Positions 89 to 64,000 of a DNA stretch of 64,000 nucleotides are shown piece after piece (within the stretch, counting starts at the first letter, position 1; every line of letters begins with the position of its first letter). Position numbers and translations under genes: made by a program. Location of the stretch: contig CM082577.2 in the NCBI GenBank assembly GCA_040954595.2, forward strand, positions 9,139,846 through 9,203,845. The letters are read 5' to 3'. The notes under the pieces were generated by a model. The model was not told the DNA's origin. It was given only the letters and a program-made list of their open reading frames with translations, and did no database searches. This stretch comes from Balanoglossus misakiensis (lineage: Eukaryota; Animalia; Hemichordata).

Positions 89-6138
<6,050 letters not shown>

Positions 6139-49809: not shown

Positions 49810-51627
49810 CCTCCCCCCTCTCTCTCTCTTCGGGCTCCTGACGTACTTTACTTTCGGTGGCGGTATTGCCCGACTCGCTCGAACACTGAGGAAACCCATC
49901 CCTCGGGAACAGTCCCCAACCCCAAACAATGAGTAATCAGAGATCATATTCTTACTATGCCGTGCTGCAGATCCCCGTGATTTCGCGCGTAAATACGCAG
50001 AAATGAAAAACGAATACCAGCTACAAAGCGCATTCTTTGTTTCTTCAGCAACGTTCACTGCATTTGGCATGCATACTCCGTCATATCTTTCGACTGAAAC
50101 GATTGCTTGGTGACATAAACGTTCGACTGTTGACAAACGTATTGGTCTCTCGCAACTCCAAAATAAACGTTCTGATTTTCCTATAAGCGGAAGCTGAAAA
50201 ATGAAGCCAGATTTCTTGTATCTATCTCTGAACCACGATGACAGGGTCTCTCACAGTCTCTCCGTCCCCCGAAGGACCTGAGCCCGACTCAGCTTCGCTT
50301 AGGCCCCGTACACTTGACCGCGCTACCGTCGCCCGCAGTTCTGAAAGGCTGGTTGACGTATCGACTTTTGACTTCGTTTGACCATGACTTCATAACCGTG
50401 GATTCTCTCGACGTAAACAAACGCAGAACGGTTCGAAAGGGGTAAAACGTTTTACCATTGTGCAGTGATTCTTTAGAGTTTTATTTGCTGAGTACCTGAT
50501 AAGCACACATATTCCGATCAAGATAAATGTGAATGGAACACCGTGCTTGAGAGATCACCGACACTCACTGAAGGAAAGGAAAAAAAAACACTAAACGAGT
50601 GTACACACGGTTACCCTTATACAAAATTTGCTTGGAGGTTGCATGTGATGTAATAGAGAAAGGCTGAACGCTATATCCAAAACAGATTGAATGTAAACTT
50701 GGCGAAAGTCCCCGTGTCACGCGACATTTGGCATCACAAGACTGTCATTCATATGCGTGTAAAGTAACGTCACACATTTGGACCGCGTTTACATAGTTTT
50801 GTTTCCTACCATAGCTTTATTAGTTTTGCTCAAGGTAGAGTACTGAGTAGTCATAGAGGCGGAGTTCATCGCGTTCGTCGTTGTTGATCACGCCTGGCTA
50901 TTGACGTTTGCTGGAATCTTTAAAAGAGACCCTTTAGCGCATGCGTTTGACAAACGTCATTAATTAACGTGTAAAATGGCAAATCTCTGCTACTCGTTCT
51001 CCCCCCCTTCTACTATATAGACATGGAGACCTGTTTAGACAAGAAAGTGTGTTATGATTCTACATCCATGTATTGAATGCGTTTTATCCGAAATCGATGG
51101 CAGGTGCACGTCATTTCCTGTGTATTTTTTGCTTGCCTCCATGCTGGCAATATTTATCTTTCATTACGCTGGCTCTTGAAAACTTATCGACTCTCTACAC
51201 CTTTGTGTCGGATTGTATAGATATACATGTATTTCAAAACGAAAATAATACGTACCCTAGCCACACTGTCTCTGTCAATATTATTCTCTGTTCTACTTGA
51301 AGGAGACAAAATGAAAATGGTGACTAGAAGTATCACTGAGCAGGCACACGCACGCATACCCAAACAGACAAATATAGCTAAGGCAGTAATACTCTTCATT
51401 AACATGCAACAACACGGTCCCTTTTGTATCTGGTTTCATTAATCTCGTTTTAAAGTGGGTAAGTCATTTTAATAATAGGTGACGTCAAAACCCACTCCAG
51501 TTCTACCCACGCTTTGGATTATCAAGTTATAAATAATACTCTATTTCAATCGCTAGCCTGGTTTTCCGTGATATTGTTGCTTACGTTTGAAAATGTGATT
51601 ACTTACAAGTAACATGTCATTCTGGAA

Positions 51628-51629
<2 letters not shown>

Positions 51630-51708
<79 letters not shown>
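51630..51708. repeat. (CAT)n microsatellite
   Basis: Directly visible. Confidence 0.97.
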
Positions 51709-51711
<3 letters not shown>

Positions 51712-54144
51712 TTAGGTTTTCATTCCAAGACTTAAATCAAGCAGTACTAAACGTGGGATATATTTCCTGCCATCTGGAATGCCCACATATAGCTTGCTTT
51801 GCAAAATTCTGTCTGGGTGAGAGATAGTTGCGTGCGCATAAACCAAACACAGTCCCCAGACGTATTGAACTGGAAATGAGTAATGAAATGGCCTTTCAAC
51901 AAGCATGCATATAACAGAGACATTGCCTCTTCATAGAAAAAAAATATGGGCGACAGGACATCCACGTTTATGGATACTTAATTCTATCGGAATCGACACT
52001 TCCTGAGGTTTTATCGCTCCACAATTTCACGGAACAAAAAAAGCTTGTAAATGCAAGAAGTTTAATCTGCATTTAGATTAATATTAAAATGTATGTTAGG
52101 TGGGGTTACTTAGGCATTTTTCTACTGATCGAGGGGTGTGATTAACTATAGACAAATAAAGCGGGAAATGGTGTATGATTTTTATAGTAGCTTCGCGGGG
52201 AAAGATCATTTTCTTCTCCGCTTTTAAGTTTTTTCTTTGTTTTTGTGCGTCTGTATCACAATCTCTTTTTTTTTCTTTGTTTTGTACGTCTGCATTTCAA
52301 TTTTGCAGAAAATAAGACCACGGACACTCCAGATTCGATATACCTGGTCAGAGGAACAAATATTAAGAATTATGAAAGTCGTTCCGGCGCACAATAAAAC
52401 GGCACGAGTGCTTTATGTGGCCTCTAATGAGGACCAAAATGAATGGTCGTTCCTCAATAAAAACTGTCGCTTTCAACTTTAAGACCCATGATACTTTTAC
52501 AGTCGGTGACCTCGTGACCTTAACGCCACTTCATACCCTGGATTGCCAGGACACACCTGAAAGTGTTTTTGGATTGGTCGCGCTGCGTTTCCATGGCAAT
52601 CTCACGAAGCCTGTCATCGGGAAGAGAACACAGTCCTACACCGCTTGACAAACAGATGAATCTCGCGGTAAATTTTGGGGGATGACAGTTACTTTAAAAT
52701 CAACGTGGGCATGACTTATTCTCACAAAAAAGCATCGACTTTTTTCGAAAACCCGCCGTGGTGTAATTTGGGTTGGCAGAACAGATTTTCCTAAGTGCCC
52801 GAAATCACCAGGCGTTTTGTTCGGCCGCATAAATGGCGCCAAATTGCCTGTAAGTGGCCGCAATAAAAATTCTCTACGGAGAGGCGCTATAACTAATAAA
52901 AATTGCGCGTATTCTTTAAGCCGAACCATTAAAGCGTAGTAATACAATTCTGGGGAAACACATCAAGGCGTGTGTACGTGGCGCTTACCAGGTTACATTA
53001 CCTATGTATGGGCAGCAGATGAATTGTCAGAAAAACAAGATAAAACACTTTAAGTCTGTGCTCAGGTTGAAATGAAGACAGCTTCGTTCCATTTGTGTAC
53101 GCGTTCGAAACGTGCGCTGCATGACCGATGGCGCGCGTTCAGAAGCGTCGATTTCTATCCTCTGTTCCAATCGTTTTTTTATTAAAAGTGACAGAAACCT
53201 TTCAATCGGCGACGTCAAGATACATCGTTGTTGGCAGTGCAAGTCCTACGTGATATTTTTTTTAAAATCCGACGAACTCTTCGTTAAACCGGCGGTCGAA
53301 AACCTCCAGTCTGTGCAGTCAGCTTGCAAAAGCAGTGTTATTGCATTCTTGCTTTATGAATGTGTCACAATTTCACTGATAGCGTTATAGATTGATCGAT
53401 TGGGTTATATGCCAGAAGAATACATACTATACACTCGCGAAGTTCATTGGAATCTATCATCAGATAGATAGATCGATCGATAAATCAATCAATCAATCGA
53501 GTAATTGAATACTACAAAGGGGTTCATTTTCTTCATTAACTTTCTGCCCATGGTTTATCATAAGCTGTCCCGGCCACCTTGAGAAAAGACTAGGTGTTTT
53601 TAACAAGTAACTATTGAAGGCAATCTTCAATGCGGGCACCTCACATACTTGTTAAGAAGCAGCTTTCAACGCGCCTCTTTTGTCAAGTCCTGTGTAAATT
53701 TAATCAGCCTTGAAGGCCTTTATTAGCGTTGTGTCAACGAACGGCTACTTCGTTACTATCGCGATCTTCGAGGGAGAGAGAGAGGGAGAGAAATTAATGT
53801 ACTTTCCAGCGTCTGTTATCGTGAGTTAGCACACAGGTCACATCCAATCGGGTCATTGAAATCTGAGCCAAAGTGAATAGAAATCTGGAGAGAAAATAGA
53901 AGCTTGTTTCCGCGTGGCAGGTAAGGTCTGATCTCACTTCGAAATGAGAATGATAATGATTATGACAGTGATAATGATAATAGACCGAAACCGACTAAAA
54001 TGATCCCCAAGTGCCGGTGATCGAGTGTTTGCCAATGGATGTGATTGGAAATTAATGGGTCTTTTTTACGATTTAACAGTACCGTGGAACAGGAGATTAA
54101 AAACCAGACAACGCAGATATTTGGAGTAGACATGTTTTTGAAGT

Positions 54145-54242
54145 AGCACAGCGCAGCGCAGCACAGCAGAGCAGAGCAGAGCACAACACAACACAACACA
54201 ACACAACACGACACAAAACAAAACAACACGACACGACACACA
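54145..54242. repeat. Degenerate pentanucleotide microsatellite (CAGCA/CAGAG/CAACA/CGACA)
   Basis: Directly visible. Confidence 0.9.
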
Positions 54243-57200
54243 GTCGTATTTGACCGATGTCTCTCAGTGGTGATGGGCACAGTTCATGTTCAGTCATTGT
54301 GTTAGCGTTACTGGGCAGTTTGCGTGCATTAAATGGAAAATGAGAAAACTGGGTTGAAATATGTGTCTGTGACATAAATAGAGCAGAGTGCCGTGACATG
54401 ACCATGAGGGTCTTGACACCTGGCTGTGAAATTCAACATTGTCATCGTGACTAATATTGTCAACATTTTGAAAGAGACAGTGTCCTCGGACATGAACAAC
54501 AGCCCACTGTTCATATTCTTCTTCTTTTGGCCTAAAGTGCATTTTCGGGATATTTTCGTGCGAAATTTTGACATCTTAAACGGACTGGGCTGTGTACATT
54601 GGCGTGACTGATCTGACCAGTTCGAAAGTTCAACTACTCATCGGAGCGTCGCGTTATAGCACCGCCGTAAGAGGCTTTATTGTCGGAAGAAATGGGCGCC
54701 GAAGGATTAGTGTAAGTGGCCTATTGAGACTGACAGGCTGAGGGTTCGGGCTGACGACAGCTAGGTGAAGATAAATTACACTGTACCTTCGCTCTGGCGT
54801 TTAATCTGTTTTTACACTTTGGAGAAGATATTTTTTTTAAACTTTCACTCGCTGTGTGCATGCAAGACATGCGTCAGTGAAGTTAGATAACACATTGCAT
54901 TAAGCAATAAACTGAGTCGTGTCAATGACGTCAGACGGGGTGTACCACGGCAAGAGAACAATTCTCAAAAGTTAACATTAATTGGGAAAGTTCGAACGCA
55001 AGGCTGATGCCCTCCTTTATAAGTTTGGTTATCCCGCAATTTTAAATTATTGTAAATGAAGGCACACTTTTCAAAATCAGCCGCTGCTATTCAATACGTT
55101 AAACTGTAAAGAAGTATAGTTTTGACTGAAATCTTCAATTTCACAGGACATAAAAATCCGAGAAAAAGAGAAAACTTTGAGTAAGACAAAAAAGGCCCAA
55201 ATTTTGTTCTCAAACAGTAGGCCTAATATGACATGAAAAACACACACGAAGATTTGTTATCTTTCATCGTGGTTTTGATATCGCCACTAAGAGCAGGAGC
55301 TGAAAATTGGAATAAGGCTAAGGGTTTTGGTTCAATTCTTCGTGAAGATTCTCATTCGAATGATTCGCCACACCATGGCACCAAAACGCTTTGACTGTAC
55401 TCCCCCCGCGCTGTAGCATGAAAGACGCTGAAAATAATATCCGTCTTAAAATCGAAATTTATGATTGTGGGATTTTTCGGCCTTCGATTTGGACAAAAAA
55501 CCGCCACCGACTCAAAAAGACACGCCGAAGGTCTTCTGATTCACAAGCTCGCCGCCCTATACAACCCCAGTCAGGATATGTCCGTCATTAAGACTTAATA
55601 ACGTGTAAAATTGGCGTAATAAATGTGCACTAATGAATCGTAAAATGCATAAATGTGTTTGTGACGTCACTTCCTTCCCTTCTCCGGGAACGTATAGCAC
55701 ACAGCCTGACATAACACCGCCGCGTATGACGTGTGGTGACTTTCTGGAGATGGGAAGCGCTTCCGGGGGGACAAACTGCGTTACCCCGGCCGACAGCGAG
55801 CGATTAACCAGGTATGCGTCTGGCCTCACAGTCACACGGGGTCTCCCGTACCGACCCGATTCAACATTGGGCGTTGCATAACAAAAGGAAACGTGCGTTT
55901 ACATGGCTTAATTTCCCCCCGAGGCGTCATCCGAACCTTATGGGTGACAAGTACGCCCGGTCAAGACTATGGGATGTTTGATAAAAATTTCAATGACCTG
56001 GGGGTCAATGCTGAGAATTGCGAATTCATGTGAGCGGAGTTCTGTGCCCCTCGCCGTGAACTACCAGTCAAACCTTCAGACAGATCATACACGGCACGCA
56101 GGAGGGGACCGTAGGTACGGTCACGGTAAACCCGGCGGGTGCGATTCCATGTGAGATTTCCAACTTTTCCCGTTAAACCGCGCCCTCTAACACCGCCACG
56201 GGGTAATGGTAACCACCTGTTGATCAATACGACAGGCAATCCTTGTGCCCTGGCCAGCTTATACCTATCTACGTATCTGTACTATCGTCGATATCCAAAC
56301 ATCAGAATCGAAGTAACACAAGGAATTTAAAGATTATATATCCTTTATTAAGTCTCGTTCAAAGTTCGCCGGGGAAAACAATTATGTCCAAGGCCCCAAG
56401 CCCGAAGTATTATATCCGAGCTAAATTTGGTGTACAGTTTATCAGCCCAGAGACTGGTGCATAGCGAAACGTAGATATGATTATTGACGCGACGCTTGGT
56501 TAAAATGAAACAGTTTAGATTATACAGTCGGTGAGTGCAGTGACCTTAATTAATCGATACCTTCTATACCTGTCTAGCAACATTGCTATGTGTGCAAATT
56601 TGTCAAAACATTTGCGGAACCAATTGCGCTAATTGACACAATCGAATTTGAATGTGGAATTCTCACATGTCAATGTATGATTGCGGTTACCTGTAGGGAC
56701 AAAGGCATGGACATTTTGAACACTGATTTTGAGGGGCCACAAAATGGAATGCACGCGTTGAGCTGAAGGATAATGACATGCATGATTATTTTTGAACCGC
56801 GAAAAAACTGAGAGAAATTTAACCATTCAGATGTGAACCGAGTCGGGTGAATGTATACGTACGGGTGATTGCGTTACCACCAAAGGCGAAACCTTGAATA
56901 TTCAGCAGTTTTCCTGCGATGTATATCTAATGTTTTAACGCTAAATTTTGTGATAGCCATTACACCACGCAACGCAACGACACACTAGAATCTGATAACA
57001 CCGACCGCGCAGACCGTTTAACGCAAACCCGCCCCTACATATAGACTCTGAGACATATGCAAAGACAAATACCCTCTCTTGTATTTGTTGCCAAGGTAAC
57101 GAGCAGACGAATTATAATTTACAAGAATTAATATGGGCCTTATTAGGATTCGTGAAAATATGAGACCTCCCCGACCGATTGTGGCCGGAACAAACGCATG

Positions 57201-57815
57201 CAATGTATTTATTTAGTCTAGACTACTTGATGCGTGTCCAAGCATTCTTAAATTTACGGAAGTCCGCCAGCCGTGATTGATTAAATGGATTTTTAAAGCA
57301 TAAAAATGCCATAATTAAATCTATTACTTCTCAATCATGTATAATTGCAATAAATATAATCAAGTTGGAATATTGAAAACTGGCACGAATTCGACGACAG
57401 TGCGTACTGTATTTGTCCAGGGACGCTAAGTTTAATGGCGACATGTCATGCCCTCACCGTTCGAGGGCGCTTTTTTGCGGCAACTCTCCAGGGCCTTGGG
57501 TGATCAATGCGAATTTTTCAGATGACTGTCCGAGTCATATCAATTTCTCAATGCAAAACATCCATGTTTTTTGGTTATATGAGTCTCGTCCATACAAAAT
57601 GCACGTCAAACCGTTCACGTAGGCTCCGTGTGCAAGTTGACGCCACCTTGCCCAAAATCTAGGTAAAATTGCCGCCGCATACCTGTATTTTACGTGATAG
57701 CATAACCGCACCGATTTCGCCGGCCCTGATTACAAACTGGGATTAAGGGCACCACTAAAAATAGCAAAAACATCACAGAGCCTTCACAGAACTTGATAGT
57801 TTTAAAGTGGTGGTT

Positions 57816-57821
57816 TTTATT
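57816..57821 (-). terminator. RPL3 polyadenylation signal AATAAA
   Basis: About 83 nt downstream of the RPL3 stop codon. Confidence 0.75.
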
Positions 57822-57903
57822 GTATGTTTTACAGACAGATTCACACCACAGTTTCACTTGTGGAATGTCACATTTGTTTCTTCAGATCCGACCATCGCCA
57901 CGA

Positions 57904-60352
57904 CTAAACCTTCTCTTTTTTCAGGATATCCTTCTTCAGAGGTCCCTTTAAGAAAATTAAAAAAATACCGCGCGTCAACGAGATGCATTGGCAGCCAGTA
58001 TGATGAAAACGGGTGATACAAAGAACTTGGGGAAACTAATTACATTCTAATTAACCAATCTATTTGTTTTTCTTCTTTACAGGAGCAGATTTAAATCAAA
58101 GGACTAGTTTGTAATTACCTGAAGATATCTGGCATATAACAAAACCAACCCGCGCAGTTATTCAGAAAAATAACATGCCGAGAGAGGGCGCTATATCGGC
58201 ACAACTCGTGACAGAGATAGAGCCCACTATTAACAAAGTCTGTGCTGGGCACAACTAATTGCATTTATATACGCGCTCTACTTTAAAAAAAATTAAATCT
58301 GCCGTAGTTTGTTTACCATGAATTTGTGTTTCTCCTCAGGTGTCTGGAAGCGTCCGTGACCGAACTTGGATGATGTATCGATGAATTTCAGGTTGATCTT
58401 TTCGGTGGCTCTACGCGAAGTCTGCACAAGCAGTGACTGCAAATGGAGAAAAAACTTGGGTATTAATATCAAAGGACTCGTGAAGGGGTAACATTTTGTG
58501 ACGTGTTGAGAACATGATTATGATAAATGTGGTTTCCGATTTACACGTGCTGGGTAAATATGGCAAATACCGGCATTCAAATCTTCGTTGTACATTTCAT
58601 GATTTGAATTATATTATTATATTCTCAGTCTTACCTTGCGAAGAGTGAGCACGCGCTTCTTCGGACCGACAACACATCCCTTGAGCATCAGGAAGTCGTT
58701 CGTAACCACTCCATAATGCGGGAAGCCACCCTGTGATGATGTTGAAAACCGTGTTTATGTCAACAGAATACACTACAAGATTAGTTGGCTTATTTCAGAA
58801 AAAAGTGAACATTGAATCTGTGAAGCCCTTATAAAAAACTTTTGGACAAGTTGAGAAAATATCAGAGATATAATTGCACGTGCTTTACCGTAACTAGGCA
58901 AAATAAATCGTTCTTTCAATATGAACATATTTTACTGCCACTGTTTTCGTCATGTGAATTTTTCTTAGGTTTATGTTTTCTTTGGGGTTTCTTAGCTTCC
59001 AACATAAAAATTAAAAAACTATGTATTTAACGTTTTTTTTAAATTTTGAGACCATTTGGCCAGAATTACCATTGGAGTGATGGATTTCTCGGTATGGTCG
59101 AACTCGGTGTTGGCATTGTTTGTGACCATCTTTCCGTCCTTTGAATAGTAACCCTTGCCGATGCGGTACACCTTCTTGTTGATCTCGGTACGGTGGTGGT
59201 AGCCCTTCTGACCAGCACGGGCAACCCCGTAGCCGACGCGGGCCGGATGCCAGGCGCCGATGCAGGCCACTTTGCGCAGACCCTTGTGGGTTTTGCGCGG
59301 CAGCTTCTTGGTTCCCCAACGTGACGTCACACCTGTTGAGTGCAAGCAAAGGGTGGTTTGGTTTTGATTCTTCTTATTCAGGTATGACTACATTGTGAAT
59401 AGCCAATTTTTCATAAAATGTTGAATTCATAAAATTAACAAACGACACAGTGGGAACAATTACAACAGTTCACAATACACGCAATATGAAACCACAAATG
59501 TGGCTCACCTCACCTTTGAACCCTTTACCCTTGGTGACCCCGATGACGTCAATCATCTCATCCTGGATGAACACATTTTCGATGGGTACCTGCTTTTCCA
59601 ACATGTCACGAGCCCACTCCACTTTCTTCTCAACGGTGCCACCATTCACTTGGATTTCTACGATGTGTGCCTTCTTCTGACGCTGGTTCATCAAACGCAT
59701 CTGAAGCATAATTACATGCAATGAAGTAGGAATGTAACCACAGCACAAAACAGCTCAGCACAACACACAACGCCACACCACAAAACAGCACACCGCACCA
59801 CACCACACCACATCACCATGTCATATCTTATCCCTCCAGGGTCTATGGTTTTACTCGTCATAAAAATCGACTTGCATTTTACAGGATTCTAACCCATACC
59901 TATGCCGCACCAACTCACGTAGCAAGCAAGAAACCCCTACGCCAAATCCACAAGTGTATGTATCTATTTTTATTCTGACGAATAGAGCCAATCGACATAT
60001 ACCACTCTAACATGAAAAGAAGTAGGCAATGTTGGAGGCTGCGAAGGTCAAATACAATCTCTCCAGCGACCCAGCATCAGAAACACCTGTTTTATCTCAC
60101 CTGCGTATGAGCAATGACCCTGATCTCTTTGCAGTATTTCGCCATCGCCTTGAGGTCTTTCTCGATATCTTTCTTTCCAGCATCGTCTGCCCACTTCTTG
60201 GAGGCCTTGGTGAACGCCTTCTTCTTGGCGCGGTACCTGGTTGACGAGAAAGCAAACGGTGCTGGGCCTCGTCAGTACAAGAGAGGAGACCCGGAGCTAT
60301 AGGTGTAGAGGACGTTAGTCTCAAGCCAATGTATTTCTCTATTATCATAGAT

Positions 60353-60428
<76 letters not shown>

Positions 60429-61799
60429 CCGCCATCACCATCATCATCATCATCATCATGTAAATGTTAGATCAGAGGTGTAGGGATCTGGTCTCGCCAT
60501 TTCACATATTCAAAACTACTTGGTGGAATAGTTTTAATCGATTTCATCGGACGCAAGAATCTCTGGTCAATAACACGTCACCATGTACGATGACGGGTAT
60601 TAATCATACTGACAGAAAAATCAAAGTAAGTTACACTGTGAAACGCTTGCGGACAACATAAAAATATAAATCCAATCCTCACCAATTCTTGTAGAAACGA
60701 CGTCGACACTCCTCGCTGAGGTGCTCAGCCCACACGGTCTTCAGAGTGCGCTGACCTCGTGGTGTGTCGATGTATCCGACTATGCCAATTATCACTAGTG
60801 GTGGCGTTTCGATGATGGTCACAGCTTCGACTATCTCCTTCTTGTTCACCTCTGGAATAATTATTATATGTTGCAGAATGTGTAAATATCAGATCGCCCA
60901 TGTTATCAACAGAAAAAAAAAGTCGAACACGGTCATTAGCGACCGTCTAATATGCGCATGTGCATAATTTCATGTGTACAAACATTATATATACGTCCAA
61001 TCCAAATGTTCTGCCAATTTTGCGTTCGACGCATTCAAATAGTGGACTGCCTTCGCTTCGACCTACAAGCACTTTTTTACATTTCCAGGTTCAAATGTTA
61101 AAAACAACAGCACACTTTTTCCCGAATCTGGGTCTTTTTAATATCGATTCTCCCACGGCAAATAAACAATTAACATGTTTGTAATATTTTGGATAAGAAC
61201 GTTGCTCTTGAAATGCAAAATCAGGTGCAACGTTACAAAACAGGAACTGCCCAGTTCCGTTTCAAGGCAAATTTAGAAACTGTAACACTTCAATAGCGTG
61301 ATAAATTGAACTTACTCGACCCCGGCCTGTCCACGTCTCTCACAACGTGCGTCATGCCGGCCTTGTAGCCGACGAATGCGGTCAGGTGGCACGGCTTCGA
61401 CGGGTCGTCTCTGGGGAAAGACTTCAGTTTACCCCTATGCCTCTTGCTCCTCTTGCGTGGAAGGAATCCCAGAGACCCGTGACGGGGAGCAGAAAACTTA
61501 CGGTGACTCTGTGTGTGGACAGATTGTCGTTATAAACAGCGGTACCGTCACATTTGAGAGAGAGAGCGATATCTGAAGAACGCATGGCGTCAACATATTG
61601 TGTGCGTGTTTTGGCAATAGTCATTTTAATATTGCCATTTGCGATATAATATGCGATTACTGTTCCTGGAAAAAACACAACATCGGCGCATTACTTCATT
61701 TATTTTCAGCGGGTCGCATCAATTTCTACGGATGGCCCCATTTAACGTTGGCTTTTTGGCGATTTTTTTCCGCCATGTCAACGGCAACCTACTCACCAT
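57904..61799 (-). CDS. RPL3: 60S ribosomal protein L3 (uL3), 9 coding exons, 402 aa
   Basis: Exons 61797-61799 (ATG), 61316-61508, 60683-60851, 60101-60236, 59514-59700, 59070-59332, 58635-58730, 58317-58436, 57904-57945 = 1209 nt. Translation [21 protein letters not shown]...[21 protein letters not shown]...[13 protein letters not shown] is unmistakably uL3. Confidence 0.99.
60358..60459. repeat. (CAT)n microsatellite in RPL3 intron 3
   Basis: Directly visible. Confidence 0.97.
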
Positions 61800-61810
61800 A
61801 TTTCTCAGTC

Positions 61811-61825
61811 GGGGGGGAAAAGAGC
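61811..61825 (-). promoter_or_regulatory. TCT initiator / 5'TOP tract of RPL3
   Basis: The minus strand reads gCTCTTTTCCCCCCCgactgagaaatATG, the polypyrimidine start typical of ribosomal protein genes. A YY1-like ACATGGCGG lies just inside intron 1 (~61770). Confidence 0.85.
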
Positions 61826-62253
61826 GTGTTAGCATAGGTGCGGGGGTGACCTCGATTATCCCGTGGTTAAAGTAAAACAGGGGTTATCTTCGGAACGACC
61901 TTTAGGTCGAATCGAAACGTTAAATATTACCTCTACATGTATTTATTTCTGTATGGGGGTTACAATGAAAAAAAATGCCCCATCAAAAATAATTCTTATT
62001 TGTTTCATAATTGTCTTGCTTTTTTCAAAATTTACGAGTTACAGGAACCAGTGAAAGGAAGGTTACTGTATTTTCTATATTGAATGAAAACTACACCATA
62101 CTGAAATAAACGCCACATAGCTCAGTATCACAACCTGCATGTGTTCTTTATTTTTACAATTTTATTCGCTTCAGCATCTATTAATATGGAGAGTAGGAGT
62201 CTGCGGTAGCACATCCCTAGTTGGTCATTTACTTTTATTATCTCAGAAAAAAA

Positions 62254-63506
62254 TCACCATGGACGCGAATATCCGAATAGCTCATAGTCTAAATCATACA
62301 CTTGGTAAACCTTTTCTTTAAGCTCAGATGATATATTTCCGTAAAGGTCCTTCACTTTATCATGAGTTTTGCCTTGCGGGTGTTCACTGGCAGGGAAGCT
62401 CACCAAATCGGCAACTTTGGCCAATTTTAGGACAGACCCCGCGTCATCCATCAGTGTTTCGTATTTTCCGATGAAATCGAAATGGATGTGACATGGATTG
62501 CACAAAAGGTGATACTGTCTCCAATGTTGATTTAGCGGTTTTCTCTCTACTGTTCTTGGGTCGACTACATGCCGAAGAAATTCCTCGAATCGTACGTCTG
62601 TCCCGTCGTTATTGTTTGCCGAACTGTCGTTTCTGTATCGCCTGACTATTTCTTTTCCGTATCGACGAAAGGGGACATTGCTGCGGAATTTACTGAGAAA
62701 GGCAGACAGTAATCTTTCCATGGGTTCCCGGACAAAGAAGAATTTGAAGTAGTCGCGCAGGCGCACTTGTATTTCCTCGGCAGAGTACGAATCCAGTCTG
62801 CGAATGTAATTGTCGTGGTGTACATGCCGCATCTCCGCCATCGTTTTGTTGGTCTCGTTTCGCAGAATTGCGAGTACCCGTTTCCAGTTGGAACACGCTA
62901 CTTTGGGCACTGAACAGAAGAGGATCTTGTGCTTGTCTTCGACATAAAATTGTCCGATGTTCTTCTTGGTGAATTTCTTTGGGAAGAGTTCACAGATTTG
63001 CCGGACGTGTTCTTGTCGCTGCCGTTGTACGTCTCGCTGAAAATGAATATCATATACATTATCAATTTCTTGTGAAATTCGTAAAAATTAAATCTTTCTC
63101 GATTTATTTTTCTTGTCATTGAAATCCAGGCCTTGGCATGGTAAATCGAGTGTGGTTGTGAGCCGCATCAAATGTGAATTATCGTTCACACGAGCGGAGC
63201 CACACGAGGCGATGGGTGTGATGCGGCTCACAACCACACGTGTTGGATATACACGCCCATCCTAACCAAGAGGTGATATCGGGCCGGGGCGAAAACCACA
63301 ATACTTTGTTGTGTACTTACACGACTTAATGAGCCAGTTCTCTTTACGGTTATTCGTAAGTTGGGTAGGGAAACGTTGGAAAGCTCCCCGAAGCGGTAAG
63401 AAAATATGAACCACGCGCCCATGAAGACCAGACCAGCTGCAAACATGACACGTGCAGTCCTTTTCAGATCAGAAGGGCCTTCGTGACCGCGGAACGGACT
63501 GGTCAT
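62254..63506 (-). CDS. Golgi carbohydrate sulfotransferase (CHST8-14 / Sulfotransfer_2 family; CHST11/14-like), 2 coding exons, ~322 aa
   Basis: Exon 63321-63506 (type II signal anchor VMFAAGLVFMGAWFIFSY) joins in phase 0 to exon 62254-63036, which has the 5'-PSB motif VPKVACSNWKR, the 3'-PB motif FFFVREPMERLLSAF, and HWRQYHLLCNPC, FIGKYETL, YDLDYELFGY. Confidence 0.93.
63150..63239. repeat. Perfect 21-bp inverted repeat in the sulfotransferase intron
   Basis: gtgtggttgtgagccgcatca (63150-63170) / tgatgcggctcacaaccacac (63219-63239). Confidence 0.95.
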
Positions 63507-64000
63507 TTCCCTGCTGAAACCATAATACCGTACAGGAGCGCATATTTGAATTTGAATAAACGAATACACTTCTTCAAAACAGCAATGTGCAAAAGCCTTT
63601 CAAATTTTAATCAAAAACACTTATTATATATTATGACAAACAATATGAGAGTAAATTTGAAAGCAATCGAACTCCTGTGGCTATATTTTTCGCCACTTTC
63701 ACGAAGACAGTTTCAGAAATATTTTGGAAGAGCCGATGTGATGACGAGCCACTGCCGAGACAACTGCACCTGTTCTTTGAACAATTCCCGTTGCAAGTCT
63801 CTCCTTCATTTGCCTGTGAATGGGGGTCACCAAAATACTTCACCGTAGACAGTGTATGGGCGCATGTACTTATTCGATCTACATGTACATGTACAATCAT
63901 GCTGACGCTATTGTAAATGATTGTTCGTATGTTTTGTTCATAGACAGTAAACAAAAATGGTCGCTACGGTTATCAGAACTACATGTGCTTGAAAATGACA

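Follow-up and report, generated by a model that had tools for sequence, protein, structure and literature searches.

The window, a 64,000-nucleotide stretch of Balanoglossus misakiensis DNA, contains an RPL3 (uL3) gene on the minus strand (57904–61799), whose splice junctions and open frame define nine coding exons and an intact reading frame of 402 amino acids. Exon 3 is 89% identical to its counterpart in Glandiceps and 87% identical to that in Ptychodera, with Saccoglossus also among the best matches. Over six exons the identity is 83–88% to hemichordate sequences against 73–77% to six other full-length homologues, five of which are named non-hemichordates. On sequence similarity the gene is hemichordate-like. 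At 62255–62500 on the minus strand lies what we take to be the last part of an upstream, carbohydrate sulfotransferase-like coding sequence. Glandiceps has two uL3-like proteins (P0003 and P0006), and the window protein is slightly nearer to the pair P0005 and P0003 (87.9 and 86.6%) than to P0006 and P0009 (84.7 and 82.9%). The window gene may be a second hemichordate RPL3 paralogue, in which case cross-regulation would be possible, as for RPL3L with RPL3.

Intron 3 of this gene (60237–60682, minus strand, 446 nt) interrupts a Trp codon. Its donor follows position 60683 and its normal acceptor precedes position 60236, and the predicted normal branch point is TACTGAC (60271–60277), with A60272 as the branch adenosine. 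A trinucleotide microsatellite of 34 copies (60357–60459) within the intron is probably incidental; a pentanucleotide repeat of 16 copies lies in intron 4 (59737–59816). The Trp-codon position is common to 94 homologous loci and is that of the regulated intron there. The window gene is an intact RPL3, and its third intron is the orthologue of the RPL3 introns associated elsewhere with nonsense-mediated decay (NMD). Feedback control of RPL3 through unproductive splicing is known in mammals and nematodes, and the available text of two papers (PMC3177206; PMC12811116), both citing Cuccurese 2005, describes a cryptic 3' splice site in mammalian RPL3 intron 3 that is coupled to NMD. The mammalian NMD isoform under feedback control, which the initial annotation had treated as established for human RPL3, is in print (PMC3177206, as far as the available text goes).

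The initial annotation proposed that a second, poison acceptor lies 5' of the normal one in this intron and is combined with two competing hairpins, A and B; on re-reading the minus strand we find its coordinates for the acceptor, the stop, the hairpins and the donor all correct. A predicted branch point GACTAAC (60314–60320), just 3' of the microsatellite, has its branch adenosine 18 nt from the AG and is followed by a pyrimidine tract and TAG (60297–60313, with the TAG at 60299–60297). Splicing to 60296 would extend exon 4 by 60 nt (60237–60296). The extension would be read, as claimed, TG/C TCC GGG TCT CCT CTC TTG TAC TGA, ending on an in-frame stop (60274–60272) that falls inside the TACTGAC at 60277–60271. 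The predicted stop lies 837 nt 5' of the last junction, further than the 50–55 nt required to mark a message for NMD at the level of sequence. Among the 14 AGs of intron 3 that were listed, the AG at 60297 has a branch-point score second only to that of the normal acceptor. The combination of CTAAC and a pyrimidine tract, criteria chosen post hoc with the 60297 site already known, occurs at 3 of the 3154 YAGs of the window, and 60297 qualifies by direct reading.

The predicted extension contains hairpin A (60264–60292), which we recognize as a copy of a conserved element, its register displaced from that of lowest energy. The 7-bp outer stem (60292–60286 with 60270–60264) leads into a 3x1 internal loop, in which CUC (60285–60283) faces C60271, and this is closed by the pairs U60282–A60272 and C60281–G60273 around a 7-nt apical loop. 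The branch adenosine A60272 is thus the A of the closing U-A pair. Across homologues the consensus comprises a stem that terminates in YUC, then three bulged bases, C-(U/G/A)-C, facing a single base, and the closing U-A pair, which is C-G in loci L020 and L026. The inner stem-loop is free in both length and sequence. Introns carry between one and four copies, located in the 3' part or last few hundred bases of intron 3.

The homologues were obtained by scanning metagenome contigs for the junction between the intron and exon 4, which yielded 99 loci, 94 of them RPL3; five were excluded as non-RPL3 (L027, L040, L046, L066 and L080). A relaxed finder gave 37 matches in 21 of 34 homologue clusters, compared with 1 on the antisense strand and 2.1 in shuffled sequence, and about three of the 37 look like chance. 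With a strict finder there were 32 matches, two of which overlap others, in 20 of 33 exon-4 clusters, against 0 antisense and 0.4 shuffled. Both counts include the window, and the finder was designed from the same loci. Within these loci the intron-3 ends, 8,215 nt in all, contain 28 matches and the 74,965 nt elsewhere contain 1, so that the element is confined to RPL3 intron 3 among the sampled loci; the pattern alone has four further matches in the 64-kb window. Carriers include vertebrate-type and copepod-type loci, and other carrier loci we presumptively assign to taxa by peptide resemblance. The initial annotation described hairpin A but missed its membership of this animal-wide repeated element.

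No match was found in 13 of the 34 clusters, including that of L022, a vertebrate-type locus, and a 33-locus cluster that has variant loops only; some of the match-free clusters are presumably short alga-like introns. In the 33-locus cluster (that of L001; for example L004, L008 and L013), the last 200 nt of intron 3 form two long hairpins having CUC-containing internal loops with different flanking pairs. These hairpins are probably variant copies missed by both finders. Another RPL3 locus, L002, has two element copies and encodes a divergent peptide in exon 4; its segment 2649–2741 (plus strand) matches the snoU83B family at 48 bits.

Several lines of evidence indicate that the structure itself is conserved. 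With the window withheld from its construction, a covariance model ranked 60260–60296 first over both strands of the 64 kb, at 21.7 bits (E 0.005), with the runner-up at 13.2 bits, and RNAalifold recovers the 3x1 register unaided. The proposed structure is 87.8% paired in 37 hand-picked instances, compared with 63.8% after shuffling and 34–48% when the structure is slid along the sequence. Because these rows had been partly filtered for pairing, the count was repeated with instances detected by sequence only. Three unfiltered positions then pair in 51, 48 and 57 of 60 instances, against shuffled expectations of 26.5, 27.1 and 35.5, with several pair types and none of 5000 shuffles as high, although shared descent means that these instances are not phylogenetically independent. 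Two-sided change is seen in 9 of 12 pairs, a count that is not above chance as it is reached by 202 of 500 shuffles. In alignments of the intron-3 end from the homologue clusters, hairpin A of the initial annotation is therefore borne out as a real feature, a conserved and covarying RNA element to judge from these comparisons. This element is the durable result of the analysis, and alternation between A and B is secondary to it.

The homologues also bear on the poison acceptor. Locus L071 is a fully spliced cDNA of vertebrate (fish-like) type in which exon 3 is joined directly to the first element copy, a splice that adds 251 nt and a stop. In the fish-like genomic loci L056 and L072 the order is CTAAC, YAG, first element copy. 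The window has the same order, with CTAAC, TAG and then the element core 8 nt downstream, and this matching layout places the predicted 60296 acceptor at the position homologous to the acceptor of L071 and to the fish-like genomic sites. The first copy is preceded by a YAG at a distance of 10 nt or less in 13 of 21 clusters, compared with 5.7 expected, an enrichment that may be inflated by AG bases of the outer stem. A poison acceptor in RPL3 intron 3 is thus supported in that the predicted site fits both the known circuit and the layout in homologues, the spliced poison cDNA included, much as the initial annotation had drawn it. A search for truncated poison products among 120 exon-3 homologues gave none that was usable, the tails resembling intron read-through or assembly errors.

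Blocking of the normal branch point by the element could instead lead to intron retention or use of another acceptor, such as that at 60609, with the AG at 60297 being incidental. The score of the 60609 AG is almost as good, the branch-to-AG distance at the upstream site is short, and 8 of the 21 clusters have no YAG within 10 nt of the first copy. We nevertheless regard this outcome as very unlikely given the rarity of CTAAC, tract and YAG in combination and the coincidence of 60297 with the acceptor used in L071 and with the fish-like genomic sites. In the predicted fold of the fish-like loci the poison AG is itself base-paired in the stem of the first copy, and its use would be disfavoured as a result.

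Hairpin B (60242–60274, with strands 60274–60268 and 60248–60242) is an alternative fold that breaks the element. It contains 8+4 pairs and has a shuffle P of 0.007 to 0.03, a post hoc value for this locus alone. Taken whole, the 89-nt region folds no better than its shuffled versions (z −1.22), whereas a 41-nt piece chosen post hoc around hairpin B gives z −3.62. As originally proposed, the two hairpins exclude each other, and B sequesters the branch point; it also sequesters the normal pyrimidine tract, of which the initial annotation had named a part. ViennaRNA finds the two folds near-isoenergetic, at 0.61/0.39 or 0.38/0.62 depending on the segment folded. The proposal that hairpin A leaves the branch point looped out needs correcting: G60273 and the branch adenosine A60272 are paired in both predicted folds, with an unpaired probability of 0.03 in A and 0.00 in B, and it is the rest of the heptamer that is more open in A (0.72) than in B (0.29). 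Because the branch adenosine is buried in both folds, A and B would make a poor on/off toggle, and because B buries both the branch point and the tract it would not be the permissive state.

Acceptor choice could still be supposed to follow from an alternation of A and B, in which uL3 might draw the RNA out of B and into A. The exclusivity, near-equal energies and pairing strength of the two folds would suit such a switch, and 9 of 35 loci have a downstream partner of at least 6 bp. Precedents exist in yeast RPL7B (PMC12311795), a tested toggle according to the available text, and in boxes I–III of fly RpL3 (PMC13092977, in the portion available). Against this, five of those nine loci come from a single cluster, in which the B-like partner is the stem of the next element copy. 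Counting one representative per cluster, in a sample of loci without close relatives, the window is the only one of 21 clusters with a B-like partner of at least six Watson–Crick pairs, against 0.71 expected. Thus neither conservation of both folds nor differential access to the branch adenosine, the marks of a two-state switch, is seen, and neither fold is clearly permissive for splicing. The toggle offered by the initial annotation as the mechanism is not supported by these counts, and we consider it improbable. Hairpin B may be real in this lineage; in all likelihood it is a competitor specific to the lineage, or else an accident, rather than the core switch. The statement that no such toggle was known to have been described also needs amending, since two-fold acceptor models are in print for human (PMC10324135) and Drosophila (PMC13092977) RPL3, as far as the accessible text of these papers shows.

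Our preferred reading, which we hold with somewhat better than even confidence, is that hairpin A is a conserved element copy and likely a uL3 site, where binding would hide the branch adenosine and shift splicing to 60296, with NMD to follow. Surplus uL3 would bind the element in its own pre-mRNA, the bound element would mask A60272 inside the closing pair, the spliceosome would be diverted to the strong upstream branch point and the predicted 60296 acceptor, and NMD would clear the resulting message with its early stop. The matches to the element, its confinement to intron 3, the rank of the window site in the leave-one-out search, the L071 splice and the YAG placement all argue for this reading. 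So do published observations, to the extent of the available text: overexpressed uL3 promotes a cryptic 3' site in intron 3 and with it the poison isoform (PMC3177206), while for RPL3L crosslinking to intron 3 of RPL3 is described, and loss of NMD takes the decay isoform from 1.4% to 42% (both PMC12811116).

Other observations count against this reading. The RPL3L CLIP–qPCR signal is described as lying upstream of the alternative acceptor (PMC12811116, available portion), unlike the element copies of vertebrate-type loci, which lie downstream of it. RPL3 overexpression in muscle cells changed the isoform little or not at all (same source and portion), and the published model requires hnRNP H1 (PMC3177206, available text). 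The clusters without a match, the paired poison AG of the fish-like loci and the level of two-sided change, no better than in shuffles, also weigh on this side, as does a search of three partial large-subunit rRNAs, covering the 3' part only, that found no mimic of the element on the sense strand.

A rival reading is that the element is real but is read by hnRNP H1, KHSRP, NPM or snoRNP proteins, or by no protein at all, and that uL3 acts indirectly. In the protein-free version, structure alone would set access to the branch point, and the human region is annotated as SNORD139. A model involving hnRNP H1, NPM and KHSRP is in print (PMC3177206), and SNORD139 is located at the end of RPL3 intron 3 and holds the predicted branch point (PMC10324135), both according to the text available. 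A C-box-like TGATGA is present in 21 of the 60 element instances; the other 39, including the window, lack it. Mature SNORD139 was not detected, going by the same portion of PMC10324135, and no Rfam family overlaps the element in the window or its homologues. A fixed loop with free stems, retained in one gene across animals, would also be the pattern expected of a binding site for the gene's own product, by analogy with L30 and RPL7B. We judge indirect action unlikely on balance and retain uL3 as the probable ligand.

Identity of the element as a box C/D snoRNA or kink-turn (SNORD86 or SNORD139 type), which would call for a conserved C box (RUGAUGA) partnered by a D box, was considered and rejected on the scarcity of TGATGA, its absence from the window and the lack of an Rfam match over the element. 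At gathering score, Rfam identifies no family in 50000–64000, and by E-value gives only weak matches, on the microsatellite and elsewhere. No snoRNA is above threshold in the introns of the window RPL3 gene, in which respect vertebrate-type loci differ.

Mimicry of rRNA was likewise considered. Three of 73 scanned loci are large-subunit rRNA (partial, 3' part only), and the best match of the element model in them, at 14.9 bits, is antisense to the sarcin–ricin loop: the loop's 3' half (L112:3486–3522, minus strand) and the 5' strand of the element (window 60268–60288, plus strand) are complementary. We set this match aside because it is on the wrong strand and the middle base of the element's loop is variable; the variable base also disfavours pairing between the two. 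Sarcin–ricin-loop-like 15-mers flanked by short inverted repeats occur also in the viral contigs L109, L110, L111 and L163 (at about position 3501); their flanks are not rRNA-like, and they are possibly a structured RNA of phages.

Like the L10ARE, RPL7B and L30 elements, the RPL3 element is a conserved element in the regulated intron of its own gene. The comparisons that follow draw on the accessible text of each paper. The window gene shares with the mammalian RPL3 circuit the gene identity and the intron number, and would share an upstream acceptor that extends exon 4, a premature stop and feedback by the uL3 family; the cis-elements published for mammals, in contrast, are G runs and a broad CLIP–qPCR region, with no internal-loop element described, whereas the window has a predicted extension of 60 nt and one copy that contains the branch point. 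SNORD139–RPL3 (Bergeron 2023, PMC10324135) is similar in that two predicted folds at the end of intron 3 alter branch-point access, and in being conserved and linked to the NMD isoform, but it involves snoRNA pairing with upstream intron, is restricted to vertebrates and has no repeated loop or uL3 ligand. In Drosophila RpL3, mutually exclusive stems formed by boxes I, II and III are proposed to select acceptors (PMC13092977); these stems are long-range and under microRNA control, and NMD is absent from the main text. The L10ARE of RPL10A/rpl-1 (Takei 2016, PMC4937301) is a metazoan-wide intronic element whose binding by its own protein shifts splicing to an unproductive site, but there a 39-nt sequence is conserved between 5' sites, whereas in RPL3 structure is conserved, the copies are repeated and the choice concerns a 3' site. 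The same study found no conserved stretch for rpl-3. The yeast RPL7B switch (Granas 2025, PMC12311795) also opposes a conserved protein-binding structure to a rival fold that affects splicing; in yeast, splicing is enhanced by the rival fold and the switch results in inhibition, whereas hairpin B of the window sequesters the branch point and shows no conservation in the loci sampled.

A repeated loop of this kind is not described in the open text of the literature consulted, including PMC8047918, PMC6288889, PMC8216456, PMC3315480, PMC12205218 and PMC2724269, and the available portions of three papers on structure screens or RPS9 mention no RPL3 element. The conserved RNA element in RPL3 intron 3 is thus apparently undescribed.

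A broader proposal, to which we give even chances, is that animals share a single undescribed uL3-response element, a 3x1 loop in one to four copies that is the long-sought direct site for both uL3 and its muscle paralogue RPL3L, with copy number and position tuning the feedback. The window gene would then be the minimal form, its one copy merged with the branch point and its threshold set by a rival hairpin of its own. Variants of RPL3L that cause cardiomyopathy block RPL3 compensation through the same splicing event (PMC12811116, available text), and the element would be relevant to this if the human intron carries the loop. Although RPL3 feedback through unproductive splicing has been on record for some two decades, no RNA site has been defined for it. 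A short loop defined by structure provides an exact target for testing a uL3 feedback site, and the single copy in the window is the simplest substrate.
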